A stretch of DNA of 64,000 nt, from NCBI GenBank assembly GCA_039970095.1, contig JBDVMP010000018.1, forward strand, positions 3,492 to 67,491, given 5' to 3'. Below the pieces are notes generated by a model. The model was not told the origin of the DNA. It was given only the letters and a program-made list of their open reading frames with translations, and did not search any database. The stretch comes from Cyclobacteriaceae bacterium (GTDB lineage Bacteria; Bacteroidota; Bacteroidia; Cytophagales; Cyclobacteriaceae). The first letter of the stretch is position 1, and the number at the start of each line of letters is the position of its first letter. Position numbers and translations under genes: made by a program. Positions 4,232 through 23,184 of the stretch are shown in pieces.

Positions 4232-4288
4232 AACAATGCAACTACCGGCATGAATTTACGGATTTAACTACACTAAAAGCAACTACTT

Positions 4289-5197
4289 ATGCCCAAAACG
4301 GACATTTTATTGGTCACAGAAGAACGCTACATCCACCCAAATCCTACGGACGCTTACAAAAAGGAGGTACTCGAAGAGGATCGACTATTGTCAGGCGCTT
4401 TGCTGGAGTTGGGCTTAACCTCTCAACGCGCCAACTGGGCCGACCAGAACGTGGACTGGTCTGCGGCCAATTATATTATCTTCCGATCTACCTGGGACTA
4501 TTTTTATCGATTTGAAGAATTTCAAAAGTGGCTGCAACGCATTGACGGGCAGGTGAAGACTATTAACCCGCTCTCGCAGATCAAATGGAATATGGACAAG
4601 CATTATTTGCAGGATCTGGCAACAAAAGGAGTGCGGATAGTGCCTACCAGGTTTGTAGAAGCGGGTGAAAAAACGACCCTTAGAGCGGCTTTTGAAGAGG
4701 GCTCATATACCAGAGCTATCATTAAACCAGCCGTTTCTGGAACGGCCCGACATACTTACTTGATAGACAATGCAAATATTGAGGCCCATGAAGAAGTGTT
4801 TCAGAAGTTGATAAAAGAGGAGTGTATGTTGATCCAGCCATTCCTGAAAAATATCGCGGAGCAGGGAGAAGTGTCATTTGTGGTTTTTGACGGCAAGTTT
4901 TCTCATGCGGTTCTCAAAAAAGCGAAAGTCGGAGACTTCCGTGTTCAGAGTGATTTTGGAGGTACTGTTGAGGAGTATCAGGCGTCCAAAGAGGAAATTG
5001 AGTTTGCAGAAAATGCCGTGACTGTCTGTGAGGTTCGGCCAATATATGCGCGGGTGGATTTAGCCTGGGATGATCAGGGAAAAATGTCGCTTGTGGAACT
5101 GGAACTCATAGAGCCCGATATGTGGCTAAGACAGCATACAGGAAGTGCCGAACGATATGCAGCAGCTATTCATGCTCATTTGAAGCAAACCTGTTAG
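4289..5197 (+). CDS. ATP-grasp protein (RimK/DcsG-like)
   Basis: FRSTWDY, WNMDKHYL, IIKPAVSG, GDFRVQSDFGG, YARVDL, ELELIEP. Confidence 0.85.
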   Translation: MPKTDILLVTEERYIHPNPTDAYKKEVLEEDRLLSGALLELGLTSQRANWADQNVDWSAANYIIFRSTWDYFYRFEEFQKWLQRIDGQVKTINPLSQIKWNMDKHYLQDLATKGVRIVPTRFVEAGEKTTLRAAFEEGSYTRAIIKPAVSGTARHTYLIDNANIEAHEEVFQKLIKEECMLIQPFLKNIAEQGEVSFVVFDGKFSHAVLKKAKVGDFRVQSDFGGTVEEYQASKEEIEFAENAVTVCEVRPIYARVDLAWDDQGKMSLVELELIEPDMWLRQHTGSAERYAAAIHAHLKQTC

Positions 5198-5327: not shown

Positions 5328-5936
5328 ATGCATAGATTTTCGGAAGAGCAAATAGAGATCGTTTCGGAACTGGTTACGGTAGCTTTGAACAAAGCCGTGA
5401 GCTCTATGGAGCAGATGCTGAGGATCAGGATCAAGGCCAACCATATTAAATACAGTCTCGGCCCATTGGAAAACATCCCCGAACTGGATCAGTTGGGGCG
5501 TTTCAAAGCTCATCTGGTCAAGCTTTTGTTTGTTGGAGATATCAGCGGAGCATTTTATTTTATCATTTTGGATCATGAGGTGGATTTGATCAACTCCGTT
5601 TGTCTTCCTGATGAGTTCAAATCAGATAAGCGGGCAGAAAATAAGCTCATGAAACATGGCTTCATGTCTGAGATTGAAAATGTGATTGCAGCACTTTCGG
5701 TAAAGGAGATCTCAGAGGCTCTTGGCGTACAACTAGAGCTGCGTGTACCGAAAATCCAAATTTTACCGGGGGTAGATATCAATGCTTTTTTTGAGAAGGA
5801 AAACAAGATTCACAAAACAGCATTTCATGTCAAATCTGTGCTGGAAGGTCAGGCCGTGAACATTGCGCCGTTTTTCATCTGGATTATGGATGATAAGTTT
5901 TTGGATGTACTCAGGTTGAATACCTCGGGTTCTTGA
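5328..5936 (+). CDS. cheC: CheC-like phosphatase, second paralog, outside the main operon and opposite in strand
   Basis: Similar to 10709-11311; one E-x2-N-x22-P site (SEIENVIAA...LRVP); first site degenerate. Confidence 0.75.
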   Translation: MHRFSEEQIEIVSELVTVALNKAVSSMEQMLRIRIKANHIKYSLGPLENIPELDQLGRFKAHLVKLLFVGDISGAFYFIILDHEVDLINSVCLPDEFKSDKRAENKLMKHGFMSEIENVIAALSVKEISEALGVQLELRVPKIQILPGVDINAFFEKENKIHKTAFHVKSVLEGQAVNIAPFFIWIMDDKFLDVLRLNTSGS

Positions 5937-5948
5937 GTAAAACCCTAT

Positions 5949-6734
5949 CTAAATAGCAAACCCCAAAATCAGGATATCGTCGTACTGCAGAGTGGAGCCT
6001 TGCCAATCTTTGATTTCGGACAAAACGGATTCCTTTTGTTTTACAATGGGCTGGTCTTGAATTTTTGCTAAAATTCTGTGAACACCTTTTGACGACAACT
6101 TTTTCTCATCAAAGCCACCCATTAGGTCTTTAAACCCGTCACTCATAAGGTAAATGTGAGAAGTCACATCCGGCTTTAGTTCTACAGAGGAGGTTTTATA
6201 GTCATGGGGGTATTCGTACATATCGCCCACCTGAAAACGGCTCGCCTTGATCTCCGTTGGCTTATTGTCCTCATATTGAATCAATCCCATTTTGGCCCCA
6301 GAGAACTCAAGCTTTCGTACGTCCAGGTTTACTTTTAGCAACCCCACGTCAGCTGCTGGGCCCATTTGCTTGTTGGACTTTTCTTTGAACTTACTCATGA
6401 GCTGATGGTGCAAATATCTGAGTATAGTGCCAGGGTCAGTAACACCTTCTTCCTTTACTATTTTGTCCAGATACTTTGTATATACGCGGGTCATCATGCT
6501 GGCCAGGTGACCGTGACCCATACAATCGAACAACGAAAGATAAAGATCAGAACCTGCCTGGTGAACCCAAAAGCCATCACCTCCGGCGCTTCCGGTCATG
6601 GGCTTATTGATGATGAAGGCATCTAGCACACTTGCCACAATTTCCTCAGGAAACATAGAGAAGTAGTTTCTCTTTGTCTGGTCCTGATCCGAGGATAGGC
6701 CAAGGTTGAAATATGCGGGTTCCTGATCGATCAT
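5949..6734 (-). CDS. Stand-alone SpoIIE/PP2C (RsbU/SiaA-type) Ser/Thr phosphatase domain
   Basis: GGDGFW, FDCMGHG, LMSDGFKDLMGG, QYDDILILG metal-binding motifs; no sensor domain. Confidence 0.88.
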   Translation of the reverse strand: MIDQEPAYFNLGLSSDQDQTKRNYFSMFPEEIVASVLDAFIINKPMTGSAGGDGFWVHQAGSDLYLSLFDCMGHGHLASMMTRVYTKYLDKIVKEEGVTDPGTILRYLHHQLMSKFKEKSNKQMGPAADVGLLKVNLDVRKLEFSGAKMGLIQYEDNKPTEIKASRFQVGDMYEYPHDYKTSSVELKPDVTSHIYLMSDGFKDLMGGFDEKKLSSKGVHRILAKIQDQPIVKQKESVLSEIKDWQGSTLQYDDILILGFAI

Positions 6735-6742
6735 TGTGAAAG

Positions 6743-7210
6743 CTACTGGAGTCCTATTACCACATATGCTTCATGATTGTTCCACATGATTGGAATGACG
6801 TAGATAGAGACATCATCAGGGATTTTGAGCTGCTCGGGCATGCCCTGAAATACCAAAGGCACGCTTATCATAAAGTTTGCCCCAAGGTTTGCCCGAACGT
6901 TTCCGGCCACAACATTGGAAATTTCACCGGCCATGTCAAGGATGTCCTCATCGGACGGGGTGTCAATACCAATAAATATTTTGATCAAGTCCTCGTACAT
7001 GTCTCTGTTGGCAGAGATATATACGAACCCCTTTCTGTTTCCGGAGATCCCAATCATTCCGGTATAGTCTTTTAGCACCAACCCTTCGGATTCTTTCAGG
7101 TAGGGCACATTCAGCTCAGAGTCAACCTCCGTCAAGTGTCTGAAATAGTTGTTGACTGAATTGATAAACAGGTTACAGGTTGCGTCGAATTCTGCTTTAC
7201 TTGTTTTCAT
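6743..7210 (-). CDS. cheX: CheX phosphatase
   Basis: DYTGMIGISG, DMAGEISNVVAGN (D-x3-E-x2-N), FMISVP. Confidence 0.92.
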   Translation of the reverse strand: MKTSKAEFDATCNLFINSVNNYFRHLTEVDSELNVPYLKESEGLVLKDYTGMIGISGNRKGFVYISANRDMYEDLIKIFIGIDTPSDEDILDMAGEISNVVAGNVRANLGANFMISVPLVFQGMPEQLKIPDDVSIYVIPIMWNNHEAYVVIGLQ

Positions 7211-7273: not shown

Positions 7274-7678
7274 TTATCGTCTTGCACTGTCGCGAATACC
7301 CAAACCCCGATTTGGGCCTGGTCGTTTCAAAAGACGATCAAAGGCTTTAGCCAGATCTTGCGCATTCACGGGTTTGTACAAAAACCCTCTGGCTCCTTTA
7401 TCCAGTGCTTTTAGGCCTGTTAGCTTATCGGAAAGTGCCGTTATGATCATCACTTTCGTTTTAGGGTGTATTTTCATGATTTCATCAAGACAGGCAAGTC
7501 CGTTCATACCGGGCATGGTGATATCGAGGGTAATCACATCTGGCATTTCCGCTCTTACCAACTTGAGCGCTTCATCCCCATCTGCGGCCATCCCTATGAT
7601 TTGAATATCGTATTCATTTAGGTTTTTCTCAATGATGCGTCGCATGATTGAGGAGTCGTCAACTATCAATAGCCTCAT
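7274..7678 (-). CDS. cheY: Stand-alone receiver (CheY-like), coupled to the NIT kinase
   Basis: LIVDDS, ITLDITMP (phospho-Asp), IITA, YKP; ATGA overlap with the kinase stop; 17-aa basic tail. Confidence 0.88.
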   Translation of the reverse strand: MRLLIVDDSSIMRRIIEKNLNEYDIQIIGMAADGDEALKLVRAEMPDVITLDITMPGMNGLACLDEIMKIHPKTKVMIITALSDKLTGLKALDKGARGFLYKPVNAQDLAKAFDRLLKRPGPNRGLGIRDSARR

Positions 7679-10287
7679 TGGTCTTCTTCGGTTTGGTCTT
7701 CTTCCGCTTTGAATGGCAAGCTGATTATGAGTTTGAAGTATTTGTCTTTTTCAAAATCCATTGTGAGCCGCGCTTTCATTTCTTTGGCCAGAGTCTTTAC
7801 AAGGCTCATCCCCTGTCCTCTACCTCCGTGCTCATCGGTTTGGTCAACAGTGGAAATACCGCTTTCGTAAATCAGGTGCATAGCTTTTTTGTCGGTCAGG
7901 TTATCTGCCTCATACTGAGTCACAATTCCCTTTTGTATGGCCTGCGCTTTTATTTTATCCAGATCCAGTCCTCTGCCGTCATCCCTGTAGGTAATGCGCA
8001 GGAGATCTTTTTTGGCTTTGTCCAGGTCTATACTGATACTTCCTCTCAAGAGTTTTCCTGACTTCAACCTCACGTCTCTGTCTTCTATGCCATGTTTGAT
8101 AGAGTTTCGAATAAGCTGTAGCATCATATCCTTGAACGGCTCCACCTGATCATTTGGTAACACAAGGTTGGCTTCATTTTTAAAGAAGAAGTCAACAGGC
8201 TTATCCATTTTTTCTGATAGCACCTTGACCGACCGCTCCAGGTTATCCACTAGCATGATATTGGAAACCACATGACCACCCGTTGGGTACTTCCGGTACA
8301 CATCGGCCACTTTTCTGAGCATAGAGCTCATTTCATCAATCATCTTGTCTGCATCGTCGATTTCATATAGCACCGTGAGGAAATCCTTGCCGGTTATTTC
8401 TTTCAGCTTCAATGCTTCCAATGTGTCTTCTATCACGTGGAATTTCTCGCTCATGATATCCAGCCCAATTACCACAGCATTGGATTTTAGGCTATGTACA
8501 GTTTGGAATGTGAAATCCAAAAGCTCTTTGAGGTTGCTCTCTTTGTCGCTTTCGTATCTTTCTGAAATGCTGCGAAGTGTTCTTTTGGCATTGTAGAGGA
8601 ACCCACGAATCAGACTTGGGTCTATTTTTAGGATGCTCAGCACTTGTTCCGTTTCCTGCTTTTTCTTTTTCTCCGCCTCTTCGAGGTGCTTTTGTAGCAA
8701 TACAGACTCTGTTTCATCGGAGATTGTCACCATGATATTGCTGATGCGGTCCTTTCTCCAAATTCGGGTGAAGTTTACTCTGATGTACTTTGTAGTGACC
8801 ACACCCTCGTTTTCATTGTAAATCTTTACTTGCTCTATGGGGTTGAGTTGGTTCACCACGTCCTCATCCATATCTTCGTTGAACAAGTGGCGCATGAACA
8901 TTTCCAGAGCCTCCAGATCGCGAGGAATGATCAGCGGGCGCATGAAATTGGCGAAGTTCTCGCCCGAAATTTTATCAACACCGAAAATCTTCTCCATTGA
9001 TTTGGAGTAGAGTTTACTCATTTTGAAGTTGCGGTCAAGTAGAAAAATACCCTGATGGATATTTTTGAATACCATGATCGAAACCCTGTAGATGTTGTTG
9101 TATAGAAACTTGGCTTTGTCTCGCTCTTTTCTCAGGATGTTATGTGACTTGTTGATTTCGTCCACCATCACATTGAAAGTTTTAGCGTATTGCCCAATCT
9201 CATCTTTAGTTGGGATGCGCACTTTTTTAGACCAATCGCCCTTGGAAATACGTATGGTAAAGATTTCAAGTGTTTTCACATTGGTCAGTAGGTTGGTGAC
9301 GATGATGGACATAAGCCAGAAAGCCAGCACACCAATGATGATATCGAGCACTATGAATGACCAGAACTTTTTAAATGCTGTACTCGAAAGCTCTACTGTT
9401 CTGTTAAGGAGTCTTTCAGAAATTCTGTCTTCCACCTTTTTCAGGGAGTTGATTTTGCTGGTGGTCATTTCGTACCAGTAACCAGGCTTCACTGCGTATG
9501 CTTCGCGCAGGTGCAATTCCTGACGCAGGCGCTCTACTTCATCCACATCATGACCGGAGATTAGCCTTTCGTAGGTTTTCTGAGACTCAGAATCTGCAAT
9601 GACCAAAAAAGCGTCAGTGTATGCTTGCTGCTGTGCTACCAGGGAAGTGAACTGGGCATAAAGCTCATCGTCCATTTCTTTGCTGGAAAATGCGTGGGTT
9701 CCTATTGCCCTTTCGATGCTTGCTCTTTCTTTGGCTTTCAGGAAATAGATTAATGCATGCACTTGCTGGGCTATTTCTTTGTCCCTTGTTTCGTTGATTA
9801 GCAGATCTACACCATTTAGCGCCACGTTGTTGATATCTGAATAATAGTCCAGCACCATTTCTGCATCCAATGTTCTATCCGCTATTTTGTTGCGGATATT
9901 GGTCAGTGATTCGAACTTTGATTTTAGTAACTCAATATCATTGATATGAATGGCTGTAGCCTTGGCGGTTTCGGCGGTGTTCAGCTCTTCATAAAACCTG
10001 TTGAGTGTGCTATCCGACCTTATTTGCTGCTGCTGAAGAGACTCTAGCAGGTCTGGGTCTTCGGAGGTCACATAGCCTACTGCCATGCTTCTTTCTTTTT
10101 GCAGCTCATGCACGGAGTGGTTAATTTCCACCCCAAGCTGTAGGGTTAGGTTGAGTCTATCTGAGTCAGAGTAATCCAGATAGTTGTGCCGGATTTGCAA
10201 ATAGTCAAAGCAGATAATGATGACTATTAATGGTATGAGAACCACTGCAAATTTTACACGGATAGGCAGGTCATATAATACTCTCAT
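7675..10287 (-). CDS. Membrane-bound CheA-like ('class III') histidine kinase: TM-NIT-TM-HAMP-PAS-like-HPt-HATPase, no CheW domain
   Basis: NIT motifs HELQKERS and KERASIER; HAMP DEIGQYAKTFNVM; HPt VHSLKSNA (His598); CheA-type P4 LIRNSIKHGIE, DDGRGLD, SGIST, GRGQGMSLVK; protein ends after P4. Confidence 0.88.
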   Translation of the reverse strand: MRVLYDLPIRVKFAVVLIPLIVIIICFDYLQIRHNYLDYSDSDRLNLTLQLGVEINHSVHELQKERSMAVGYVTSEDPDLLESLQQQQIRSDSTLNRFYEELNTAETAKATAIHINDIELLKSKFESLTNIRNKIADRTLDAEMVLDYYSDINNVALNGVDLLINETRDKEIAQQVHALIYFLKAKERASIERAIGTHAFSSKEMDDELYAQFTSLVAQQQAYTDAFLVIADSESQKTYERLISGHDVDEVERLRQELHLREAYAVKPGYWYEMTTSKINSLKKVEDRISERLLNRTVELSSTAFKKFWSFIVLDIIIGVLAFWLMSIIVTNLLTNVKTLEIFTIRISKGDWSKKVRIPTKDEIGQYAKTFNVMVDEINKSHNILRKERDKAKFLYNNIYRVSIMVFKNIHQGIFLLDRNFKMSKLYSKSMEKIFGVDKISGENFANFMRPLIIPRDLEALEMFMRHLFNEDMDEDVVNQLNPIEQVKIYNENEGVVTTKYIRVNFTRIWRKDRISNIMVTISDETESVLLQKHLEEAEKKKKQETEQVLSILKIDPSLIRGFLYNAKRTLRSISERYESDKESNLKELLDFTFQTVHSLKSNAVVIGLDIMSEKFHVIEDTLEALKLKEITGKDFLTVLYEIDDADKMIDEMSSMLRKVADVYRKYPTGGHVVSNIMLVDNLERSVKVLSEKMDKPVDFFFKNEANLVLPNDQVEPFKDMMLQLIRNSIKHGIEDRDVRLKSGKLLRGSISIDLDKAKKDLLRITYRDDGRGLDLDKIKAQAIQKGIVTQYEADNLTDKKAMHLIYESGISTVDQTDEHGGRGQGMSLVKTLAKEMKARLTMDFEKDKYFKLIISLPFKAEEDQTEEDQ

Positions 10288-10315: not shown

Positions 10316-10684
10316 CTAGCTTTCGCTAAACACCTTGTTTACCACCTCAACTAATGCTTCTGAGGTGAAAGGTTTTACAATATAATCAGATGCTCCGAGC
10401 TCTTTGCCCTTGTTGATAACAGTTTGTTGACCAACTGCGCTGATCATGACAATTTTTGATTCCAACCCCTGATCTCTCAAGACTTTTAAGATTTCAAACC
10501 CCATCATATCCGGCAGAATGTTATCCAATGTTATCAGGTCGGGTTCGGTTTCCATGGCCAGGTCTATTGCAGACTCGCCATCTTTTGCTTCGCCTATGAC
10601 CTCATATCCGGCTTCTTCCAGAGCGGTCCTGATCAGGGATCTCATATAAATTGAATCGTCAACTATTAATACTGTATTGCTCAT
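10316..10684 (-). CDS. cheY: CheY response regulator
   Basis: LIVDDS, ITLDNILP, ISAVGQQ, IVKPF; Bacillus/Thermotoga-like SAxGQQ. Confidence 0.9.
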   Translation of the reverse strand: MSNTVLIVDDSIYMRSLIRTALEEAGYEVIGEAKDGESAIDLAMETEPDLITLDNILPDMMGFEILKVLRDQGLESKIVMISAVGQQTVINKGKELGASDYIVKPFTSEALVEVVNKVFSES

Positions 10685-10708: not shown

Positions 10709-11311
10709 TTAAACTAAGTCTTTTATTTTGTTCATAAACTCTTCGTGAAACACCCAGATAAAATCCGGAGATATATCCATTTCCATGCCTTGAAAATTTG
10801 CTTTGAAATGGATGATTGAATCAAAACCAGAGGTTTGCTTTTCCAGATATGAGTTGATATCCCGGCTGCTAATCACGTCCAGCGAAGGTACCATGCCGTA
10901 AATTTCCAATCCGAGAAAATTGGAAAACTCTGTGATCACCGCTGCGGCCATCATGTTATCCACTTCTGTGAGAAAACCCATTTTCATCATTTTACTTTCA
11001 GCGCTTTGGCTTTCTATGATGGTGGCGGGTAGGCAGGCACGGTATATTTTGTTTACCTCGTCTTCGGTGAAGATCAGGTGGCTCATTCCTTTGAGCTCTC
11101 CCATCAGGTCCGTTTTAATGAGGTGAACAGATTGCTCCGGCTCTTTTGCGAATCTGGGCAGGGCGTCTTTTATTTTATCACTGTAATCAACTTTTACCAT
11201 GGAAATGGGGCTTTGCAAAATTTGCTCCATGGACTTTTTGGCCATCGACATTCCGTCGAATACGAGCTTGGAGGCGACCTCCAGTTCGGCTTGGTTTAAT
11301 TTGTCTAGCAT
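10709..11311 (-). CDS. cheC: CheC-like phosphatase
   Basis: TEVDNMMAAA...GMVP fits E-x2-N-x22-P; located between two cheY genes. Confidence 0.8.
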   Translation of the reverse strand: MLDKLNQAELEVASKLVFDGMSMAKKSMEQILQSPISMVKVDYSDKIKDALPRFAKEPEQSVHLIKTDLMGELKGMSHLIFTEDEVNKIYRACLPATIIESQSAESKMMKMGFLTEVDNMMAAAVITEFSNFLGLEIYGMVPSLDVISSRDINSYLEKQTSGFDSIIHFKANFQGMEMDISPDFIWVFHEEFMNKIKDLV

Positions 11312-11444: not shown

Positions 11445-11807
11445 TTATTGAAGCAAAAGCGCTAATTCTTCCAACAATTGTTCCTCTGAAAAGGGCTTAA
11501 TTAAGTATGCTTTTGCGCCGAGCGACATGGCTTCTTCTATAGCTGATTGCTGCCCTACTGCACTGATCATGATTGTGCAATGTGCTATCTTCTCCTGATT
11601 CAGAATCTGGAGTATCTGGATGCCGGTCATATCAGGCAAAATATTGTCCAGCGTTATGATGTCAGGCTTGAGCAGGGATATTTTGTCCAGAGCCTCTTCT
11701 CCGGTTTTTGCTTCCCCAACCATCTCATAGCCGGCCTTTGCAATCGTGTTTTTAACGGACATCCGGGAATATGCCGAGTCATCTACAACTAATACTCGTG
11801 GCTTCAT
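11445..11807 (-). CDS. cheY: CheY response regulator
   Basis: LVVDDS, ITLDNILP, ISAVGQQ, LIKPF; ATGA overlap with cheR. Confidence 0.9.
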   Translation of the reverse strand: MKPRVLVVDDSAYSRMSVKNTIAKAGYEMVGEAKTGEEALDKISLLKPDIITLDNILPDMTGIQILQILNQEKIAHCTIMISAVGQQSAIEEAMSLGAKAYLIKPFSEEQLLEELALLLQ

Positions 11808-12667
11808 AGTTTGACTGTTTTGTGCTTACGATAAACCTTGGTTTTGATATCTTCTACTTTGAAGAGTTTCTTTCCAGCCTCAGGCATGATGTCATAATAG
11901 CCAATGATAAGGTAACCATCGGGCCGGAGGCAGTCGTATATCATCTGAAGGACTTTCATCTTGAGTTTTTCGTCGAAGTAGATCATTACATTTCTACAAA
12001 AGACAATGTCGTAACTGCCAGTAACCGGATCATGCACCAGGTTGTGCTTCTCGAACTGAACATTTTCTTTATACAAGGCCTTAATGGTGGCATGCTTGTG
12101 GTGAAAGTCGAAATAGTCTTCCAGTTTTCTTCCGGGAAAAAACTTTAGAAAGGGAGTGAGGTATTGCTTGATGACCTCCAGAGGGTAGTCTCCTTTGCGC
12201 GCCTTGTTCAGGGCCTTGGAACTCAGGTCTGATGCCGCCAATCTCGAGCTGGTGCGCATGTTTAGTTCTTCTAGAACAATGCCCATGGTATACACTTCCT
12301 CTCCGGTGGAGCACCCGGCATGCCATATGTTTAATGGCTGTTTTTGGAACGTGGGAAGGATTTCATCTCTGAGCTTGATCCAGACATCTGGGTTTCTAAA
12401 TAGCTCAGTCAGGTTGACGAGGAGGTCATCGATGGCGGCATTAAAAAAGACTGAGTCTTTGAGGATTCGGCCCCACAAATCAAGTGAAGACTCCATGCCA
12501 TGTTTCATCATGAGCCTGTTCACCCCGCGCTTGAGGGACTGTTTTTCATAGTTGGTAAAATCAAGGCCGTATCGGTTTTTGATGGCCACCATCAGGGCGG
12601 TCATCTCTTCGTCCGTTATGAGTTCGGCGGTTTTATGCATGTTGGCCAATGCCCCGGTCATCTTCAT
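11804..12667 (-). CDS. cheR: Chemotaxis methyltransferase CheR
   Basis: VNLTELFRNP, IWHAGCSTGEEVYT, DIVFCRNVMIYFD; ATGA overlap with cheA. Confidence 0.96.
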   Translation of the reverse strand: MKMTGALANMHKTAELITDEEMTALMVAIKNRYGLDFTNYEKQSLKRGVNRLMMKHGMESSLDLWGRILKDSVFFNAAIDDLLVNLTELFRNPDVWIKLRDEILPTFQKQPLNIWHAGCSTGEEVYTMGIVLEELNMRTSSRLAASDLSSKALNKARKGDYPLEVIKQYLTPFLKFFPGRKLEDYFDFHHKHATIKALYKENVQFEKHNLVHDPVTGSYDIVFCRNVMIYFDEKLKMKVLQMIYDCLRPDGYLIIGYYDIMPEAGKKLFKVEDIKTKVYRKHKTVKL

Positions 12668-14349
12668 TTGGTTCTCTGTAGTGCTTGTTTGTGTACCGTG
12701 TCAGTGAGTACAGTAATGTCGATTACAGGGCAAACTTTTCCACTACCTAGAATTGTAGCTCCACTGATGAGTTTGATGTTTTGCAATGGGGGAGCCAGGG
12801 GCTTTTCAATAATTTCTTTTTGCTGTAGAACTTTGTCAACGACAATTCCGGTGGTGCGATCGCCATAGGAAACGATGATTACATCAAAAGGCTTGTTTTC
12901 TCCTAGTTCAAAAGTTTTATGAAGAGCTCCCCGATAATGCGCATCTGAAAGCTGATCCATCTCTAAAAGATCCTGAAGAAAAACCAGAGAGACGGCCTCA
13001 CCCTGAAAGTCTGTTGTGAGTCCTGGGCCTAATTTTTGAATTTCACTTTTTTGACGCGTGATAACAGCTTCTGTATAGGAAAGAGCAATGGCGTATGTCT
13101 GATTTTTTATTTCGAAAAGCAAGGTTCCTTTCAGCGCCAAAGAAGCCGGAACGTGAAGTTCTATTCTTGTGCCTTCTCCCTTTGTTGTTTCGATTTTGAC
13201 CTGGCCACCTACAGACTCTACGGCCTTTTTCACCACATCCATTCCCACTCCACGACCGGAGATCTCGCTTACCTTGTCTGTGTTGGAAAAACCGGATGCA
13301 AATATGAACTGAATTACTTCCGAATCGGGGAGGCTTTCCCCGACCTGTTTTGACACCAGCTTGCGCGCGATGATTTTGGCTCTGATCGTTTCCACATCTA
13401 TCCCTGCCCCATCGTCTGTTACAGATATCACGACCCGATCTCTTTCATATGCTGCTGCCAACTCTACCTGACCATCGCTGTTTTTGGAGGCTTTTTTTCT
13501 TTTTTCGGGGCTCTCGATCCCGTGACTCACGGCATTGCGTATCAGGTGAACGAGGGAATCACCGATAATTTTTAGAATATTTCTGTCTATTTCAACATCA
13601 GTTCCTTTGAGGATCAGACTCACTTTTTTGTTTTCAACAGCCGAAGCATCGCGTAACACACGGTGAAACTTATTGAAAAGAAAGCCGACCTGAACCATAC
13701 GCACGTTCATGATGCTATACTGAAGGTTGGAGGAAATGCGCTTGAGCGCATCCAGCTCAGAAGTCCCTCTTCCGAGTTGCTCTGATAAACTGATGAGCCG
13801 ATCTCTTTCTATAATGAGCTGTCCCACTTCGTTCATCATTTCATCCATTTTTTTCACTGGCACCTGGATCACATCCGAAAACGAGATTTGGCTTTCAGGT
13901 TGTTCCTGCTCTGTTTCTTCCTCTGCGTGAGTAGTTTCTTCCTCTGCATTTTCATCTTTGGCGGCCAGTGCCTTTTGGAGAAAGAGTGTCAGGCTGGTTT
14001 TTATACCGAGATAACTCACTTTCTGGTCTGTTTCTAATGCTGTGACGAGGCTTTTGAGCTTATCGTTTGCACGAAATATCAGATTAAAAAGGTCAGCACC
14101 AAGCCGTATTTTTTCTTCCTGTATGGCGAGCATGACATCTTCTATAGTGTGGGATAGCTCTGCGATGGCATCAAAACCCATGCCCATGGCATTGCCCTTC
14201 ATGGTGTGGGTGATTCGGAAGATTTCTTTTATGGCCCGACTGTTTTTGTGGTCTTTTTCAAGGTCCACAAAAAGTTTGTCCAGGTGTTCCTGGTTGTCTT
14301 TTGCTTCGACAAGGAAGAGCTCTTTATATTCTGATTCTTTTGATTTCAC
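12664..14349 (-). CDS. cheA: Chemotaxis histidine kinase CheA (P1-P3-P4-P5, no P2)
   Basis: GTG start; HPt FRITHTMKGNA (His48); short acidic linker; P3 VPVKKMDEMMNEVGQL; P4 HLIRNAVSHGIE, DDGAGID, SGRGVGMDVV; C-terminal CheW domain. Confidence 0.96.
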   Translation of the reverse strand: MKSKESEYKELFLVEAKDNQEHLDKLFVDLEKDHKNSRAIKEIFRITHTMKGNAMGMGFDAIAELSHTIEDVMLAIQEEKIRLGADLFNLIFRANDKLKSLVTALETDQKVSYLGIKTSLTLFLQKALAAKDENAEEETTHAEEETEQEQPESQISFSDVIQVPVKKMDEMMNEVGQLIIERDRLISLSEQLGRGTSELDALKRISSNLQYSIMNVRMVQVGFLFNKFHRVLRDASAVENKKVSLILKGTDVEIDRNILKIIGDSLVHLIRNAVSHGIESPEKRKKASKNSDGQVELAAAYERDRVVISVTDDGAGIDVETIRAKIIARKLVSKQVGESLPDSEVIQFIFASGFSNTDKVSEISGRGVGMDVVKKAVESVGGQVKIETTKGEGTRIELHVPASLALKGTLLFEIKNQTYAIALSYTEAVITRQKSEIQKLGPGLTTDFQGEAVSLVFLQDLLEMDQLSDAHYRGALHKTFELGENKPFDVIIVSYGDRTTGIVVDKVLQQKEIIEKPLAPPLQNIKLISGATILGSGKVCPVIDITVLTDTVHKQALQRTK

Positions 14350-14351
14350 GC

Positions 14352-15377
14352 TTATAAACAGTTTACCAAATAACCTCCGATTTCGTTGATGTTTAAAACC
14401 ACGGCCGCAGCACCCTTTTCCCGGGCTATTTTTGGCATGCCATAGATGATACTCGAAGCTTCATCCTGAGCAATCGTAAGGCCGCCGGCTTCTAAAATTT
14501 TGCTGAGTCCCTTTACTCCGTCTTTGCCCATGCCCGTGAGCAACACACCTATCGCTTTTTGCCCAAATGTTAATGCTACAGACTCTAAAAGGGCGTTTAT
14601 GGAAGGGTTGTTGTATTCTTTATATTCCTGACCTGAAAAACCAATAGTATATGTTTCTCCCTTCTTTTTTATAACGGTGTTGCCTTCTCCGCTGGCAATC
14701 ACGATCATGCCTGGTTTGATAACGAGACCTTCTTTACTGACTACCACATCAAGGTTGCTGAGCGAGTTGAGGCGTCTGGCAAAAGAACGAATGAAGTTGT
14801 GAGGCATGTGCTGTCCAATAACAACGGGAACGTTTAGGTTGGCCGGAAGCGAGGTGATTATTTTTTCTATGGCTGTTGGCCCACCTGTAGATGCCCCGAT
14901 GGCGATAATGTCATATTGAGGCTGGGGCTCAAATGTGTGTGTGAGCTGATTGAGACCTGCTTCTTGTATGTGAGTTGGTTTTGGCCGGGCGCCTGCTACT
15001 TTTTTTATTCTGGCGATAAGCTGTGCCTCCATTTCCCGAATCTTGGAACCACCCTTTTTTGGTTTGTTGATATAGTCAACCGCGCCGAGCCTAAGGGCAT
15101 CAAATATTGGATCCAGGTTTGTGTTGCCGACGGAGCTCAAAATCAGGATAGGGCAAGGGCAGTGTTTCATGATTTGCTCCACGGCGTAAAGCCCATCAAA
15201 ATCGCCCATGTTCATATCGAGCAGAACCAGGTCTGGTTTCAACTGTGCTGTTTGCTTTACGGCCTCCTTGCCATCTGTCGCAGTACCGATTACCTCAATT
15301 TCGTCATCTTTTGAGAGGAGGTCTCCGAGTAGGAGCCGCATAAAAGCGGAATCATCGACTACTAGTATTTTAATCAT
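14352..15377 (-). CDS. cheB: Chemotaxis methylesterase CheB (REC + esterase)
   Basis: N-terminal REC; catalytic GASTGG, QHMP, LTGMGKDG. Confidence 0.97.
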   Translation of the reverse strand: MIKILVVDDSAFMRLLLGDLLSKDDEIEVIGTATDGKEAVKQTAQLKPDLVLLDMNMGDFDGLYAVEQIMKHCPCPILILSSVGNTNLDPIFDALRLGAVDYINKPKKGGSKIREMEAQLIARIKKVAGARPKPTHIQEAGLNQLTHTFEPQPQYDIIAIGASTGGPTAIEKIITSLPANLNVPVVIGQHMPHNFIRSFARRLNSLSNLDVVVSKEGLVIKPGMIVIASGEGNTVIKKKGETYTIGFSGQEYKEYNNPSINALLESVALTFGQKAIGVLLTGMGKDGVKGLSKILEAGGLTIAQDEASSIIYGMPKIAREKGAAAVVLNINEIGGYLVNCL

Positions 15378-15383
15378 GCGCCT

Positions 15384-16115
15384 TTATCTGGTGGTTGGCG
15401 TTTTTACCTGAGATTGCATTCGGTCGCCTTCTATAAGCTCATCAATATCTATAAAAAAGGCCATTTGCCCCTCATACCTGACCACACCTTTGATATAAGT
15501 TTCTTCACGTGGTAGTTCCGTCACGGTACCTGATGCTACTTCAATATCTGAACCATTTACGCGTATGTTTCCAGGAACTTGCGGAAGCAAGATCCCCACG
15601 GTGAATCTCTCACTGGAGACAATCATGGTATATGTATAAGCAGCGCTTGGTTTCTCTAAACCGAGTTTCTGCGCCAGGTCGATTAAAATGATGCTATTGT
15701 TTCTGATAGTGGCAATACCGGGAATGTAGTCGGGTGTCCTGGGAACGGCGGTCACCTGCGGTGTTTTTACCACTTCGTTTACCTTGTTTATTTCCACAGC
15801 AAAGTCATTTCCGGAAAGGTTAAAAACCACCAGATGGGCTTTGGTGTCTGCTAGTGATGTTATTTCTGTTCTGAACTTTTGGTGAAGGGCTTCTCTTCTC
15901 AGCACTTCATCCGGAGAAATTAAACCCTCTGTCTGAGCCTTCGTTGTTTTAGGTTTTTGGCTTTGTTTCTTTTTAGCTTTTACCGTCGCTTTTGGGGCAT
16001 GCTTTGGTTCAATTAACTTTTTGGGCGCAATTTTTTTCTTCTTCTGTATTGTGGTTTTATCCTTCACCAGAGGAGGAGCCGACTTTGTTTTTTTAAGGTT
16101 GTTTCCCAGTGCCAT
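15384..16115 (-). CDS. cheW: CheW with long Lys/Pro-rich N-terminal extension
   Basis: LVVFNLSGNDFAVEINKVNEVV, TAVPRTPDYIPGIATIRN; ~65-aa basic N-terminus starting MALGNNLKK; TAATG overlap with parA. Confidence 0.88.
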   Translation of the reverse strand: MALGNNLKKTKSAPPLVKDKTTIQKKKKIAPKKLIEPKHAPKATVKAKKKQSQKPKTTKAQTEGLISPDEVLRREALHQKFRTEITSLADTKAHLVVFNLSGNDFAVEINKVNEVVKTPQVTAVPRTPDYIPGIATIRNNSIILIDLAQKLGLEKPSAAYTYTMIVSSERFTVGILLPQVPGNIRVNGSDIEVASGTVTELPREETYIKGVVRYEGQMAFFIDIDELIEGDRMQSQVKTPTTR

Positions 16116-16861
16116 TACTTTATTGTTTTCAAAAGCTCTTTGGTGAATGATCTGTAGTCCTGTGCGCTTGATGAAGACGGGGAGTAAGTAAGCACACTTT
16201 GTCCAAAAGAGGGTGCCTCAGAAGCGCGAACATTTGTTCTGATATAATTTGAAAAAATTTTGTAGGTGTAATTTTCCCTGATGTGATCCATGATTTCATT
16301 GCTGAGCTTGCGACGTTTGTCTAGCATGACCGGCAATATCCCCAAAACTGCCAGTTTGGGGTTTGAGGTGTTACGGATTTTTTCGATGGTATCTGATATG
16401 AGATCCAGACCCTGAAGGCTGAGTACCTCCATTTGCATGGGAATGATAATTTTGTCAGCACAAGTGAGTGCATTTATAGTCATGAGTGAAAGCGACGGAG
16501 GGCAATCAATCAAAATATGATCATAATCGTTTTTGACCTCATCGAGAATTCCCTGCAGGATTGACTCGCGATTGTGCTCTTCGGCAATGGCCAGCTCCAG
16601 ATCAGCGAGTGATACATCGGAAGGGGCAATATCCAGCTCTTCGCGTGATACGATTATGTCTGTTATTGCTACTTCACCCTGGATAACCTCTGCCATGCTA
16701 CTTTCGGCATGCTGTATGCCCAAAGAATATCCCAAGCTTCCCTGAGCATCCATATCTACAAGCAAAACACGTTTTTTGGATTCACTCAGTCCTCGACCAA
16801 GGTTGATTGTCGTGGTGGTTTTTCCAGTTCCTCCTTTTTGGTTGACAATTGCTATGATCAT
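16115..16861 (-). CDS. parA: ParA/Soj-family ATPase within the che operon (ParC/PpfA-like role inferred)
   Basis: Deviant Walker A NQKGGTGKTT, LVDMDAQG, LIDCPPSL, SEAPSFG. Confidence 0.92.
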   Translation of the reverse strand: MIIAIVNQKGGTGKTTTTINLGRGLSESKKRVLLVDMDAQGSLGYSLGIQHAESSMAEVIQGEVAITDIIVSREELDIAPSDVSLADLELAIAEEHNRESILQGILDEVKNDYDHILIDCPPSLSLMTINALTCADKIIIPMQMEVLSLQGLDLISDTIEKIRNTSNPKLAVLGILPVMLDKRRKLSNEIMDHIRENYTYKIFSNYIRTNVRASEAPSFGQSVLTYSPSSSSAQDYRSFTKELLKTIK

Positions 16862-17038: not shown

Positions 17039-17458
17039 CTAAGACAAGACCCTCGTTTTCAATCGGCTTTGAGCGGCGATTACTTTTAGTTCTTCGGTTG
17101 TACGCATACAAAATGGGAGACTCAATAGGTCGCTAAAGTCTTCACCGCATTCCAGCATGTCTTCATCATACTCATCGTAATACCAGTTTACCCGAATCTT
17201 AGTGCCGGATTTTTCGAAGGTCTTCACCTTTTTGAGAATTTCATAAATACACTTCGCACTAGATGTATTGAACATACTGAAACACATATTTACAACCAGA
17301 TGTTTCGGCGTAGACGGACAGTTTGTGAGGTTGTCCATAATCGGTTTGTAGAAGGAAATGCTATGATCGGGAGAGGATAAACCCTTGATGTCTAAACGAC
17401 CCCTGTCCAGATCTAACCTGACTAATGGGGTTTTGTTGGTTGGTTTGATTAATAGCAT
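17039..17458 (-). CDS. SiaC-family (DUF1987) regulatory phosphoprotein
   Basis: KPTNKTP, KGLSSP, FYKPI, FNTSSAK (Thr65), VNWYYDEYDEDMLECGEDFS. Confidence 0.85.
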   Translation of the reverse strand: MLLIKPTNKTPLVRLDLDRGRLDIKGLSSPDHSISFYKPIMDNLTNCPSTPKHLVVNMCFSMFNTSSAKCIYEILKKVKTFEKSGTKIRVNWYYDEYDEDMLECGEDFSDLLSLPFCMRTTEELKVIAAQSRLKTRVLS

Positions 17459-17569: not shown

Positions 17570-20095
17570 CTATTCCTCTATGTTGATGTGATTGGCCTCT
17601 TTGGTAATGTCTCTTGAGATACCGAATGTACCAATGATTTTGCCGTCAGTATCTTTGAGAGGCATTTTGGTGGTGGAGACAGTTTTTACTGACCCATCTG
17701 GTTGATCTACTTTCTCAACCAAATTCATTAATGGCTCGCCTGTATTGATAATTCTTTGCTCGTCTTCATAGGCTTTTTGTGCATGGTCGCTGTAGAAGTC
17801 AAAGTCGGACTTACCGATCATTTCTTCCAAGTTCTCAACGAGATGTCCGTAAGACTTGCTCACTCGGGTAAACTTGCTGTCTTTATCCTTGAAATAGATG
17901 TAGTCCGGCATATTGTTGAGAAGAGCGTCGAGATAACTTTTTTCCTTTTCGAACATCATTTGGTTCATTTTCAGGTCTGTGATGTCTCGAGATATTCCGA
18001 AGGTACCAATGATGTTTCCATCTACGTCTTTGAGAGGCATTTTAGTGGTGGACAGGTATTTAATCTCACCATTTTTGAGATCCGCTTTTTGCACGATGTT
18101 GATCAGAGGCTTATTGGTGCGGATTATTTGTTGTTCTTCTTCATAAGCTACACGAGCATGCTGTCCATGGAAGTCAAAATCAGATTTTCCTAAAATCTCA
18201 TTTTGGTGGTCCATTCCAAAACGCGTAATGTGAGATTGGCTGTTTCTGATAAACTTACTGTCTTTGTCTTTGAAGTAGATAAAATCAGGGCTGTTGTCCA
18301 GCAGAGCGTCCAGTAGGCTTTTCTCCTTTTCGTAAGCTTCGCGCATTTGAAACAGTGCGTTGTTTTGTTGGCTTTGTCCGGAGAGTCTAACCATGCTGAT
18401 CCCTTCGCTGAATTTTTCTGCCACTTCGGCCAGACTTTGGGCCTTTTCATTATAGCTGCCCATTCCGGACGACAACTCTGAAGCAGAGCTGGCCACTTCT
18501 TCTGTGCCAGCAGCGGTTTGCTCGGCAATGACCACAACACTTTCGGTGATGGTCACCACGTTGTTGATGCTGCTAATCTGGTTTTGTGCCGAAGTGAGTA
18601 TGTCTTCAGAGAAGCTTAATGTATTATTAGAAGAATTTAGAATTTCTTTGAAAGACGTTGAGGCGGTCTGAGATGTTTCTTCTCCTCCTTTGACGACCTT
18701 TTTCATTTGCTCCATTACTTTCACAGCGTCTTCAGTATCTGCATGTACACTGTTAACGAGTTTTTCAATTTCCTTTGCCGACTTTCTGGAGTCTTCGGCC
18801 AGCTTTCTTATTTCCTCTGCTACTACGGCAAAACCTCGTCCAGAATCTCCTGCTTGCGCTGCTTCAATGGCTGCATTGAGGGCTAAAAGGTTTGTTTGCG
18901 CCGCTATTTCCGTTATCACACTGAGCGCACTTGATATTTCGCTGCTTCGCTCATTTAGCACTTGCATGGAGGAGTCCGTTTTGTTACTAAACTCGGAAAT
19001 TTCCTTCATGCTGTTGACCACATTATCTATTAGGTTCATGCCGTTTTCGCTGCTTTTAGCTCCGGTTTTGGCAGCTTCATTGATGGCTTCAGACTTGATG
19101 ACCATCTTTTTGGAGTCTTCCAGAATCCTTTCCATAAGTGCGGAGGATTCATCAACTTTTGAGACTTGGTTTTGTGCTCCATTGCTCATCTGAGCAATGG
19201 CAGAAGCGATCTCATTGGTGTTGGCGTTCATCTCTTCGCCGGTTACTTTCATTTCAGTAGCAGACTCGTCGATGACCTTCACATTTTCAGAGATCTGATG
19301 AAGAAGGCCGTCAAGGTTGTCTAAAGCCAGGTTAAGGTTGGTAGCCATGGTTTTTATTTCTCCCTTAGCTTCTTCTTTGTAGCGTAGCGTTAAATCACCA
19401 GAAGACATGGCTTTTACTATTTTGTTGATTGCTGCAAATGGAGTAGCAATACTTTCAAGCAGCTGATTTACGTTTGACGAAAGTCTCAGCCATACGCCCT
19501 CTTTGCCGGATAGCCCGATACGTTCATTAAAGTGACCATCTTCCCCGGCACTTTTTACCACTTCATTGGTTTCACCCACCATCATTTTTAAGTTTTGGCG
19601 CATGCTGATCAAAGAGTTTCCGAGTAAATCGTTTTCTCCTTTGGTATGGTACTCAGTGTCAAGGTTACCTTGAGAAATATCCTGCGCGAAAGAAGCAGCC
19701 TGCTTAACAGCCTCCAACAGGCTATTCATAGCCACAGATAACAACCCGACCTCATCTTGCCGCTTGATCAAATCCTCTGGAATGTTACTTACTTCTCCAG
19801 AGGTCAGAAGGCTCACTCGTTTGGATATTCGGTGGATCGGTATGCTGAGTATGATGAAGCAATACCTGAAATATGCCGATGTAACAAGGCAGCCTAGAGG
19901 TAAAACCCAGGCTAAATGTATAAGTCCTTTTTCAGCCACAAAATATCCAAAAACGGACATCATGATAAGAAGTACGATCAGTGGCCATGACAGCTTAAAT
20001 AGTAGCGTTTTTTTGAACAATAGCCTTACCGACATGAAACTTAGCGGTGCGGCAATTAAAAGAAGGATTAGGGTAAAAATTGAAAAATCACTCAT
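17570..20095 (-). CDS. Methyl-accepting chemotaxis protein: ~3 TM, no periplasmic sensor, multiple HAMP, signalling domain, two C-terminal PAS domains
   Basis: [34 protein letters not shown]; two PAS repeats [13 protein letters not shown] / [13 protein letters not shown]...[23 protein letters not shown] after the hairpin. Confidence 0.93.
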
Positions 20096-20141: not shown

Positions 20142-20669
20142 TTAAATCATTTTTAATATATCAACTAAAAAGATCATTTGATCTTCGTGTTTGGCAATTC
20201 CGACAATGAACTCATCGTCTTCAGTTAAGTTTTGTAAGACGGAGGCAGACTTGTTGATACTGGGTTCTTCAATCATGACTGTTTTGGGCACTGTTTTAAC
20301 TAAAATTCCGGCTTGAAATTCTTCACTGTTGATTACCAGAACGAAAGCCGTGTGGTTTGGAGTTTTTGCTGGTGAAGTGGATACTCTGGATTCAGCGTCC
20401 ACGATGCTAATCACAGAGCCTCGCACATTCGTCACACCCAAAATGTAATCTTGTGTTTGGGGAATGGGAGAAATATCCGGGGCGTTTACTACTTCTTTCA
20501 CGTCATGGATGGGTGCTCCGTATTGCTGATCGCCCAGCTGGAATACCACGATGGCTTCCTTTTTTATCGTGTCCTGCGTGCCGTGAACCAGTTGGGTTTT
20601 TTCGGCATGATCAACCCAGCTTTTTCCTTCAGGTATCAATGAATTTGTATTTTGGGAAGGTTTACTCAC
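20142..20669 (-). CDS. cheW: CheW coupling protein
   Basis: GTG start; IVVFQLGDQQYG, VKEVV, ISPIPQTQDYILGVTNVRGSVI; between the two MCP genes. Confidence 0.93.
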   Translation of the reverse strand: MSKPSQNTNSLIPEGKSWVDHAEKTQLVHGTQDTIKKEAIVVFQLGDQQYGAPIHDVKEVVNAPDISPIPQTQDYILGVTNVRGSVISIVDAESRVSTSPAKTPNHTAFVLVINSEEFQAGILVKTVPKTVMIEEPSINKSASVLQNLTEDDEFIVGIAKHEDQMIFLVDILKMI

Positions 20670-20676
20670 GTAAGTT

Positions 20677-23184
20677 TTAACTTAATCTAAACTTGCTTAT
20701 TCTCTCATTCAAACCTACTGCGACCTGAGATAGGTCTGCTGTCTTCTCATTGTAGTTGTCCATACCGGCCGAAAGCTCGGTGGCAGAACTTGCAATTTCC
20801 TCAGTGCCCGCAGCAGTTTGCTCAGCTATTACCACCACAGATTCGGTGATGGTCACTACGTGTTTGATAGCATCTATTTGCTGGAGCACATGGTTTCTGA
20901 TTTCGTCTGATACGTTGAGATTGGCATTGGCCGACTCATATATTTCGTTGAATGCATCCGAAGCATGTTTTGTGGCATCCTCCCCACTTTGTACACTGGC
21001 CTTCATCATTTCTATGGCTGTACTGGCACTGGATACATCCTTCTTCACGTCCAGAATAAGCTTTTCTATTTCTTTCGCCGATTTGCGAGAGTCCTCGGCC
21101 AGCTTGCGAATTTCCTCAGCCACCACTGCAAAGCCACGTCCTGCATCCCCAGCCTGGGCGGCTTCTATGGCGGCATTGAGTGCCAGTAAGTTTGTTTGAG
21201 CTGCAATTTCGGTTATGACCGAAAGGACACTGGAGATCTCATTCGAACGATCCGTTAGGACCTGAATGGAGTTGTAAGTTTCGCCCGAAAAAGCAGAAAT
21301 ATCACGCATGCTAAACCCTGCCTTTTTTACCAACTTCAGCCCTTTGTCGCTGTTGTCGGAGACCTCCTGGGCTACACTTTTGATTTTATCGGCCTGATCT
21401 CCCATCTTGTTTGAGGACCTGAGGATTCCTTCTACCAGGTTGGAAGACTCATCTACTTTTGTCACCTGATTTTGTGCTCCACGGCTCATTTCTGAAATAG
21501 AAGAGGCAATTTCACGGGTGTTGAGAGTCATCTCTTCATTTACACCGAGCATTTCCACAGCAGAATCAGCCACACGCTTGGATCCTGCCAAAATTCCCTT
21601 GATCAGGTCGCTGATGTTATCAAGGGCGGAATTTAGGTTGTTGGAGAGTACCTGTATATCTCCTTGTACATTGCTGCTAAACCTTACGGTGAGGTCCCCA
21701 TCAGCCATGGCGTTTACCACATGGTTTATTTCTTTGAATGGGTTTGCCAGAGAGTCGAGAAGCGAGTTTATCGAATCGCTAAGCTCTTTCCACGCACCAT
21801 TTTCCCAGTCAGTCTCAATCCGCGCGGTGCTTAGTTCGCCGGATTCTCCTGCTCTTTTCACCACAGTGTTGGTTTCACTGATAACTGTCTCCAGGTTTTC
21901 GCGCATGCGCAAAAGTGCATACCCCAGCATATCCCGATCGCTCGATACTTCAAAAGATTCTGACAGGTTGCCTAGACCAATCTGATGTGCAAAGTTTGAC
22001 TTATATATCAACTGATCCATTAGGTGATTTGCGGAAGTTGCCAGCTGACCGATTTCGTCTGAGGACTTGAAGTCCAGCCTGTTTTCCACATCTAAATCTC
22101 CCGTTGACAGCCGTTGTAGCATTTCGCTTGATTGATCCAATGATCTGGCGATGGAGGTAGCAATTTTGTAGGTAATGATAATGAGTATTATCAGCCCGAT
22201 CAGTCCCACAGCAATAGTTGCAAAGAATGTTCTGGCGATGGGGCCGGTTATTTCCTTGATGGGGATTTCCAAACCGGCAGACCATGGGGATTTCGAATAT
22301 CCAATTTCTATAGGAGCAAAAGCGATCATCACCTCTTCCTTGCCAAAACCAGCGTTATTTGCAGTAAAAGACGTTGTTTCTCCGTTAGCGATGATTGACT
22401 TTAAGTCAAAACCCAGACTTTGATAAAACGGCAATGAATCCAATGGCTGGTTGGCATATTTAAGGTTTTCGTGGGTAATTACGGTTCCTTTGTTTGAAAC
22501 AAGGAAAGCAAAGCCTCTATCGAAAAAGTCTATCTCAGACATTGATTCAAAGTCATCCAAAAACATGTCTGTTCCGATCAGTCCGGCAAATTTTCCATCT
22601 AGCATGATGGGGGCTTCCGGAGAAACACCCAGCAACAATTCGTCTGATTTTCCTCCATAGGCAGCAAATTTGTAGGGCTCGCCAATGATTTCTTGCGGGT
22701 TTTGTTTGATGTAGGAATACAGCCCCGTTTCAGGGTCGCCGTTCAGGTTATCCAGACGAATGTGCTCCTGAACATCACCATCATCGAGGTAATAGGTGGC
22801 CCTTTCACGACCGAAGGGTTTGTCCCACTCCGGGTCTATGGACCAGAGCTCGTAACTCATCCAGGCGGCCTCATATTTGGGGTTTGATTTGAGGGCGCCA
22901 ATCATGATTTGTTTTCTAACTTCAGTTCTTTGGTCTGCGGGAAGAGAAAGCGCGGCTTCCATGGCTGTGGCCATAGACCGAGTCACGGCAATGTCTTCAC
23001 TCAAAATCCTGGAGATTTCATTTGCCTTCTGGCTTGCAGCTGTATTTACCAGCTTCCACCCCTCTTCTATCGCCTGATTTCGCAGGCTCAGTGTGATATA
23101 GCCCAGCGTAAACACGTACGTCAGTATCATGGTGCCTATGATAAACACCATCATTTTTTTTCGAATGCTAAAATTCAAGTTCAT
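20677..23184 (-). CDS. Methyl-accepting chemotaxis protein with periplasmic dCache domain and multiple HAMP
   Basis: TM1, ~290-aa periplasmic region ([26 protein letters not shown]), TM2, HAMPs, [29 protein letters not shown]. Confidence 0.94.

Follow-up and report, generated by a model that had tools for sequence, protein, structure and literature searches.

A flagellum-less member of Cytophagales had a single chemosensory gene cluster, whose last gene encoded a stand-alone PP2C phosphatase of the SiaA type, and this phosphatase was conserved across the orthologous loci. The conserved PP2C was the stronger result of our analysis, and the SiaC-family gene located within the same cluster was a lineage-specific accessory. 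We tentatively propose that the PP2C could be a receiver-controlled Ser/Thr-phosphatase output of the cluster, acting on SiaC-family proteins that SiaB would phosphorylate in trans. This reading was derived from sequence comparison and we regard it as possible rather than probable.

The host was a Marinoscillum-like Cytophagales, a gliding, marine and flagellum-less bacterium with a genome of 5.19 Mb. There was no FliG_C match in this genome and, at 98.5% completeness, no GGDEF domain either. Thus, a flagellar output and a c-di-GMP output were both impossible, and the aggregation response through SiaD and c-di-GMP that the initial annotation had suggested was excluded.

The chemosensory cluster and its terminal PP2C

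Open reading frames and domain matches in the window (the whole analysed stretch of 64,000 nt) revealed one che gene cluster on the minus strand, running from 23184 to 5949. The features are listed in cluster order, followed by the gene that faced its end from the opposite strand:

20677..23184, minus strand: MCP with dCache and HAMP domains, opening the cluster
20142..20669, minus strand: CheW
17570..20095, minus strand: MCP carrying HAMP, a signalling domain and, at its C-terminus, two PAS domains; it directly precedes siaC
17039..17458, minus strand: SiaC/DUF1987 phosphoprotein paralog of 139 aa with an ATG start (PF09345)
16115..16861, minus strand: ParA/MinD-type ATPase, directly downstream of siaC
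15384..16115, minus strand: CheW-like protein of 243 aa with an N-terminal extension; its start overlaps the parA stop
14352..15377, minus strand: CheB methylesterase
12664..14349, minus strand: CheA with Hpt, dimerisation, ATPase and CheW-like domains, the only CheA of the genome
11804..12667, minus strand: CheR methyltransferase
11445..11807, minus strand: CheY1, CheY-like receiver
10709..11311, minus strand: CheC-like protein of 200 aa (NCBIfam CheC_Thtogales, E 7e-8; weak match to Pfam CheC)
10316..10684, minus strand: CheY2, CheY-like receiver
7675..10287, minus strand: NIT-HAMP kinase of 870 aa with an Hpt-like part (His598) and a CheA-type ATPase
7274..7678, minus strand: RR3, single-domain receiver; its start overlaps the NIT-kinase stop (Response_reg, E 1.5e-28)
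6743..7210, minus strand: CheX, of the CheY-P phosphatase family, followed after 8 bp by the PP2C gene (Pfam CheX, E 2e-19)
5949..6734, minus strand: stand-alone, sensor-less SiaA-type PP2C of 261 aa, last gene of the cluster
5328..5936, plus strand: second CheC-like paralog, convergent with the PP2C gene (weak match to NCBIfam CheC)

The genes for MCP, CheW, CheA, CheY, CheR and CheB were encoded together as in a complete Che pathway, and since the genome had a single set of CheA, CheR and CheB, this cluster was its only chemosensory system. No Ser/Thr kinase was encoded in it. The NIT kinase matched the NIT (174 bits), HAMP, Hpt (weakly) and HATPase_c families as well as NCBIfam CheA over residues 359-536 (E 5e-35); it had a membrane segment, lacked a CheW-like P5 domain, and its H598 was invariant. 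The idea that the C-terminal ATPase of this protein was a SiaB-like Ser/Thr kinase was rejected because it matched the CheA ATPase core and the protein carried the Hpt-like His598. The two CheC-like paralogs (5328-5936 on the plus strand and 10709-11311 on the minus strand) were 29% identical and both fell under the Pfam CheC threshold. The plus-strand copy was kept at the same place in Marinoscillum-type loci and was 73-99% conserved in L046-L082. Together with CheX, there were three CheY-P phosphatase-type genes in the cluster. Scans for sigma-70 promoters and terminators returned fewer matches than shuffled sequence and were uninformative on the operon structure.

The initial annotation had described the last gene as a sensor-less PP2C, and this description held. 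Its product scored 45 bits against Pfam SpoIIE (cut-off 25 bits), and its sole NCBIfam match was SiaA over residues 426-656 (E 2e-32, 112.8 bits against an equivalog cut-off of 700 bits). The sole PDB match was also the PP2C domain of SiaA (6k4e, E 9e-23). The full-length SiaA architecture of membrane sensor, HAMP and PP2C was not present in the 261-aa protein. The motifs GGD53, D70-CMGHG, D199-G and DD252-253 were invariant in 25 orthologs and aligned with those of SiaA in 6k4e; with all metal-binding motifs present, the enzyme is predicted to be catalytically intact. Judging by these matches, it was nearer to SiaA than to PP2Cs of the RsbU/SpoIIE type. The genome encoded six PP2Cs in total, of which the nearest paralog was a dCache-HAMP-PP2C on contig 29 (27% identity, E 1e-26) and the RsbU-like ones were not detectably related to the cluster PP2C. 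STAS proteins, which are potential alternative substrates of the PP2C, were encoded in the genome as well. In SiaA, the loop residues G611/F612 dock SiaC (PMC7647112). This docking loop was not conserved in the cluster PP2C, where FDEKKLSSKG was paired with the SiaA segment EHGFGFGSRR in the 6k4e alignment. A separate observation concerned a 750-aa PP2C paralog on contig 5 (66788-67372) with degenerate motifs (S-ADF in place of GGD and CSCLDKD in place of DCxGHG), which may be a pseudo-phosphatase.

The best non-orthologous matches of the cluster PP2C were fusions of a receiver and a PP2C (REC-PP2C) of 420-450 aa. Such fused forms were located in paralogous loci: on contig 29 of the same genome (12049-13299) and in L105 and L112-L114. 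In L112, the fusion belonged to a SiaB-X-HK-REC-PP2C operon. In L105, the operon was REC-SiaC-PAS-HK-REC-PP2C, its SiaC came from the same clade as the in-cluster SiaC, and the che cluster of this genome had lost siaC and parA. Additionally, a histidine kinase and an OmpR-type regulator preceded a PP2C-SiaC pair in Ekhidna sp. To15. Within the cluster itself no receiver-PP2C fusion was present, the receiver (7274-7678) and the PP2C (5949-6734) being separate genes. Since the REC-PP2C fusions were the nearest relatives, receiver control of this PP2C type was plausible. Arguing from gene fusion, the receiver-CheX-PP2C series of the window may represent the same design split into separate genes.

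The SiaC family and the SiaB kinase of the genome

The siaC gene lay between the MCP-PAS-PAS gene and parA, and its product was a DUF1987/SiaC protein with FNTSSAK around Thr65, as had been annotated. It matched PF09345 with 114 bits (E 4e-33, cut-off 24.5 bits) over profile positions 1-117 of 120, and Thr65 in its motif FNTSSAKC was the candidate phospho-acceptor. In a phmmer search against PDB, residues 4-122 aligned to P. aeruginosa SiaC (6kko and 6k4f, E 3.6e-12), and N64-T65-S66 was paired with N67-T68-S69 (LNTSS), so the proposed correspondence of Thr65 to Thr68 was borne out. In P. aeruginosa, the Thr of N67-T68-S69 is phosphorylated by SiaB and the motif contacts SiaD (PMC8457831). An AlphaFold model of the in-cluster protein (pLDDT 87.6) was compared with the crystal structures 7e6g, 6kko, 6k4f and 6kkp, giving target-normalised TM-scores of 0.83-0.86 and an rmsd of 1.8-2.1 Å; the protein is thus predicted to share the STAS-like fold of P. 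aeruginosa SiaC. In the model, T65 opened a helix (65-83), and there was an extra C-terminal helix (121-137).

The acceptor Thr was kept in 65 of the 67 SiaC-family members compared. However, the protein scored 67.4 bits against the NCBIfam equivalog NF038265, for which the cut-off is 150 bits. It was therefore a family member rather than an equivalog of the P. aeruginosa-type biofilm regulator, and the genome, having no GGDEF domain, offered it no SiaD partner. FNTSS was invariant, and the in-cluster subclade had Met at -3 and Ala at +3 of the Thr, whereas almost all other family members had Tyr and Ser at these positions. M62 and A68 of the in-cluster protein occupied the positions of Y65 and I71 of P. 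aeruginosa SiaC, which both contact SiaD (PMC8457831). From these changes at two SiaD-contact positions we infer that the altered Met/Ala face may serve a different binding partner. The dN/dS of siaC was 0.029 relative to the ortholog in G002, which indicated strong purifying selection and hence a gene that was not decaying. The gaps flanking siaC were 111 bp and 177 bp, so the gene may have its own promoter.

The window was correctly said to hold neither SiaB nor SiaD. Searching the genome for SiaB (DUF6272) gave a single copy, located at 15591-16151 of contig 29. It was part of a module (contig 29: 9753-17108, L008) that encoded a dCache-HAMP-PP2C, the REC-PP2C, a histidine kinase, SiaB, a SiaC and a 179-aa coiled-coil protein without a Pfam family. 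This module was conserved in Marinoscillum and Ekhidna, where SiaB was 85-87% identical. Thus, the cluster phosphatase, the kinase and the in-cluster phosphoprotein were not encoded in one operon, as SiaB was located on contig 29 next to a different SiaC paralog. In P. aeruginosa, SiaC binds a coiled-coil stalk in SiaD. In this cyclase-less genome, the 179-aa coiled-coil protein may be a target of SiaC.

There were six SiaC-family genes in the genome for its one SiaB. Two divergent paralogs of the family (contig 51: 30193-30642 and contig 82: 106777-107190) had Ala in place of the acceptor Thr (FNAST and FNATT) and may be variants that cannot be phosphorylated. Each gene came shortly after those for large PAS histidine kinases and receivers.

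The distributions of SiaB, SiaC and SiaA-type PP2Cs were linked: in 61 related genomes, they occurred or were missing as a set. Among these Cytophagales, SiaC was found in 47, SiaB in 46 and a SiaA-type PP2C in 45, and the 14 genomes that lacked SiaC also lacked the other two. All 22 additional genomes bearing the che cluster had both SiaC and SiaB, which was weak evidence since about 75% of the genomes of the order carry the two in any case. Expansions of the families were seen in G048, G012, G037, G054 and G058, with up to 23 SiaC, 13 SiaB and more than 40 SiaA-type PP2Cs per genome.

Conservation and loss across orthologous loci

Orthologous loci were collected with the NIT kinase as bait (37 loci with 10-kb flanks), all cluster proteins were mapped onto them, and further loci were added through PP2C homologs and a metagenome scan. 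The loci came from Marinoscillum, Ekhidna and metagenome-assembled genomes of Cyclobacteriaceae/Roseivirgaceae. In every locus that reached that far (about 50), the order NIT kinase-receiver-CheX-PP2C was kept, with CheX invariably between the receiver and the PP2C, and PP2C identity ranged from 36 to 96%. One lineage had two tandem stand-alone PP2Cs ending the cluster (L107: 9117-10792 and L110: 18417-20092), the two copies being 49% and 36% identical to that of the window. The MCP/CheA core was absent from the contig L123, which encoded CheR, CheY, the NIT kinase, the receiver, CheX and PP2C. Small ORFs on this contig were considered as divergent SiaC and rejected, as both the motif and the Pfam match were absent.

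This invariant neighbourhood bears on another role for the PP2C, namely that of an internal feedback or reset enzyme that would take Ser/Thr phosphates off a cluster component, for instance the NIT kinase, one of the MCPs or the CheW-like adaptor, with SiaC unrelated to it. Tight coupling of the PP2C to CheX (8-bp gap), the NIT kinase and the receiver in every locus would agree with such a function, as would a cluster unusually rich in phosphatases (two CheC-like proteins and CheX) and the persistence of the unit without its MCP/CheA core in L123. However, the absence of a Ser/Thr kinase from the cluster argues against it, the PP2C subfamily tracked the presence of SiaB/SiaC across genomes, and relatives of the PP2C were located in SiaB or SiaC operons. 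We therefore consider a reset function quite improbable.

The distribution of siaC was different from that of the PP2C. The initial annotation had named co-occurrence of both genes with the che cluster as a check, and the PP2C accompanied the cluster throughout the approximately 50 loci. In contrast, siaC was found in 7 of the 14 Marinoscillum-type clusters, each time between the PAS-MCP and parA (the source genome, L046, L050, L055, L056, L081 and L082). It was missing from the other Marinoscillum-type clusters (L047, L048, L049, L052, L053, L054 and L079) and no Ekhidna-type or more distant cluster, of about 25, contained it. Poor conservation of siaC had been named in advance as an argument against a Sia-like output, and its absence from half of the Marinoscillum-type clusters partly went against that proposal. 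Since the PP2C was always kept where siaC had gone, the in-cluster SiaC cannot be its only substrate. The PP2C showed the same level of identity whether or not siaC was in the cluster.

According to the NIT-kinase tree, the in-cluster siaC occurred in all three Marinoscillum subclades. Thus, the gene was most simply ancestral in Marinoscillum and lost at least four times. In the SiaC family tree, the in-cluster proteins grouped with the L042 copy, and a well-supported clade (98/88) joined the in-cluster SiaCs with the Ekhidna SiaC encoded 6-14 kb downstream of the cluster. This che-associated clade was separate from the SiaB-linked and tandem clades. Other siaC genes near the cluster were located 1.8 kb upstream in L042 and 2.5 kb downstream in L108, the latter from a different paralog clade (the tandem/contig-53 clade). 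In many Ekhidna genomes the distance was 6-14 kb downstream and in some it was 37-186 kb. A single origin of all cluster-proximal SiaCs was rejected by the AU test (p 0.0097). Ahead of the Ekhidna gene of the che clade, a conserved 147-aa PAS protein was encoded on the same strand (L077: 20336-21339, L086, L088, L090 and L092). A conserved PAS-SiaC unit was rejected, as this stand-alone PAS protein was unrelated to the MCP PAS domains (26% identity). The PAS gene of L042 was an ortholog of those domains (47-53%).

The same history could be read as that of a passenger: siaC would be an independently transcribed paralog of the genome-wide SiaB/SiaC network that stayed near che by inherited synteny, and the PP2C would act elsewhere, for example on the contig-29 SiaC, on a STAS anti-sigma antagonist or on an unknown protein. 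Repeated loss of siaC beside a PP2C that is always kept suggests this, together with the 111-bp and 177-bp gaps on either side of the gene, the drift of the related Ekhidna SiaC from 6 kb to 186 kb from the cluster, the ratio of six SiaC paralogs to one SiaB and the presence of STAS proteins. A mere passenger is, however, difficult to reconcile with the strong purifying selection on the in-cluster SiaC and with a subclade-specific change at two of its partner-contact positions. Moreover, in separate lineages, SiaCs of two clades had come to lie 1.8-2.5 kb from the cluster, and the PP2C was of the SiaA rather than the RsbU type. On balance, we judge the passenger explanation to be somewhat unlikely.

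At least three of the siaC losses (L047/L049, L052 and L053) had also removed the adjacent parA, and parA was never lost alone. Without an adjacent siaC, parA was kept in L048, L079 and all Ekhidna-type clusters. In L053 (Marinoscillum sp. MHG1-6), where parA and siaC were deleted, the CheW-like protein (4268-4861) had 197 aa in comparison to 243 aa, and most of its N-terminal extension appeared to be gone. Loss of the extension where parA had gone fits the N-terminal arm as the ParA-binding part of the CheW-like protein. It could be proposed on this basis that SiaC, as a STAS-like switch, regulates the ParA/CheW-like array-positioning pair independently of the PP2C. The location of siaC directly upstream of parA, the joint losses and the shortened CheW-like protein of L053 would all agree with it. 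Nevertheless, the clusters that retain parA without an adjacent siaC speak against this scheme, single deletions can explain the joint loss of neighbouring genes, and we find it very unlikely.

Proposed output and relation to known systems

We return to the PP2C as an output of the chemosensory pathway. In the scheme that we prefer, the PP2C would be its Ser/Thr-phosphatase output, and a phosphorylated receiver, either RR3 or a CheY, would control it in trans, in a split version of the receiver-PP2C fusions. The PP2C would strip the phosphate that the single SiaB kinase of contig 29 would put on the conserved Thr of SiaC-family proteins. The in-cluster SiaC would then be an ancestral but dispensable addition in Marinoscillum, a dedicated paralog with an altered helix-2 face. 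Its probable role would be to pass the signal on to a partner that is not a cyclase, perhaps the ParA/CheW array-positioning pair encoded next to it. In this scheme the pairing of phosphatase and substrate, the receiver control and the target are all inferred. Points against it are the retention of the PP2C in clusters that lack siaC, the distance of up to 186 kb to the related SiaC in Ekhidna, the different clade of the L108 SiaC, the unconserved docking loop and the STAS proteins as alternative substrates. Of the Sia-like module fed by che that had been proposed initially, the SiaA-type PP2C, the acceptor Thr of SiaC and a SiaB encoded in trans were retained, and the conservation of siaC and the c-di-GMP output were not.

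A broader version is conceivable though doubtful. In flagellum-less, c-di-GMP-less gliding Cytophagales, a PP2C switched on by a phosphorylated receiver would work against one master SiaB on several SiaC paralogs, each with its own partner, for example in ParA-based array positioning, gliding or adhesion. This would show one kinase, several phosphatases and several SiaC paralogs as a branched Ser/Thr network fed by His-Asp signalling. For Che-type pathways in gliding, flagellum-less Bacteroidota, the PP2C, as the only conserved non-Che enzyme of the cluster, offers a concrete and testable candidate output. If the proposal is true, chemosensory systems would gain a Ser/Thr phosphatase as a new class of output, and partner switching of the SiaABC type would extend beyond c-di-GMP control. 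Among cultured Marinoscillum, M. pacificum had siaC in its cluster and M. furvescens and M. luteum did not, which provides a natural comparison.

The system was like SiaABCD of P. aeruginosa (PMC8457831, PMC7647112; PDB 6k4e, 6k4f, 6kko and 7e6g) in the SiaA-type PP2C domain, in the SiaC fold with its N-T-S motif at the start of helix 2 and in the presence of SiaB/DUF6272 in the genome. However, the PP2C lacked the sensor portion, periplasmic or HAMP, the genes were not gathered in one operon since SiaB was on another contig with its own SiaC, and the genome had no diguanylate cyclase. SiaD-contact positions had also changed (Y65 to M and I71 to A), and the genes were located within a full MCP/CheA/CheW/CheY/CheB/CheR cluster.

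In the ParC/ParP system of Vibrio and the PpfA system of Rhodobacter, which position chemosensory arrays, the che cluster includes genes for a ParA-type ATPase and for a partner with a CheW domain. The cluster of the window was similar in encoding such a pair. To our knowledge, neither a SiaC-like gene nor a PP2C belongs to those systems. In text searches of the literature, no paper was found that connected a chemosensory cluster with DUF1987/SiaC or with a PP2C, and none that dealt with the Che systems of Marinoscillum. It has been suggested that DUF1987 proteins modulate adjacent proteins (PMC8457831).

Two studied systems couple phosphotransfer to a PP2C. In the HptB-HsbR-HsbA system of P. 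aeruginosa, the PP2C is linked to a receiver, is under the control of a phosphorelay and has a STAS-like partner-switch protein as its target (PMC7647112, PMC8457831). HsbR differs in that it fuses receiver, PP2C and kinase, has a cyclase or an anti-sigma factor as its output and is found outside a chemosensory cluster. The nearest studied analogue was RsbK-RsbM-RsbY with RsbV/RsbW in B. cereus, where a His-Asp phosphotransfer route with a Che-type methyltransferase probably drives the PP2C, whose substrate is a STAS-type switch protein (PMC4574943). That system has no MCP, CheA or CheW, and its PP2C acts on the STAS protein RsbV, with sigma B as the output. In RsbY, receiver and PP2C are fused, whereas in the cluster described here they were separate genes with CheX between them.
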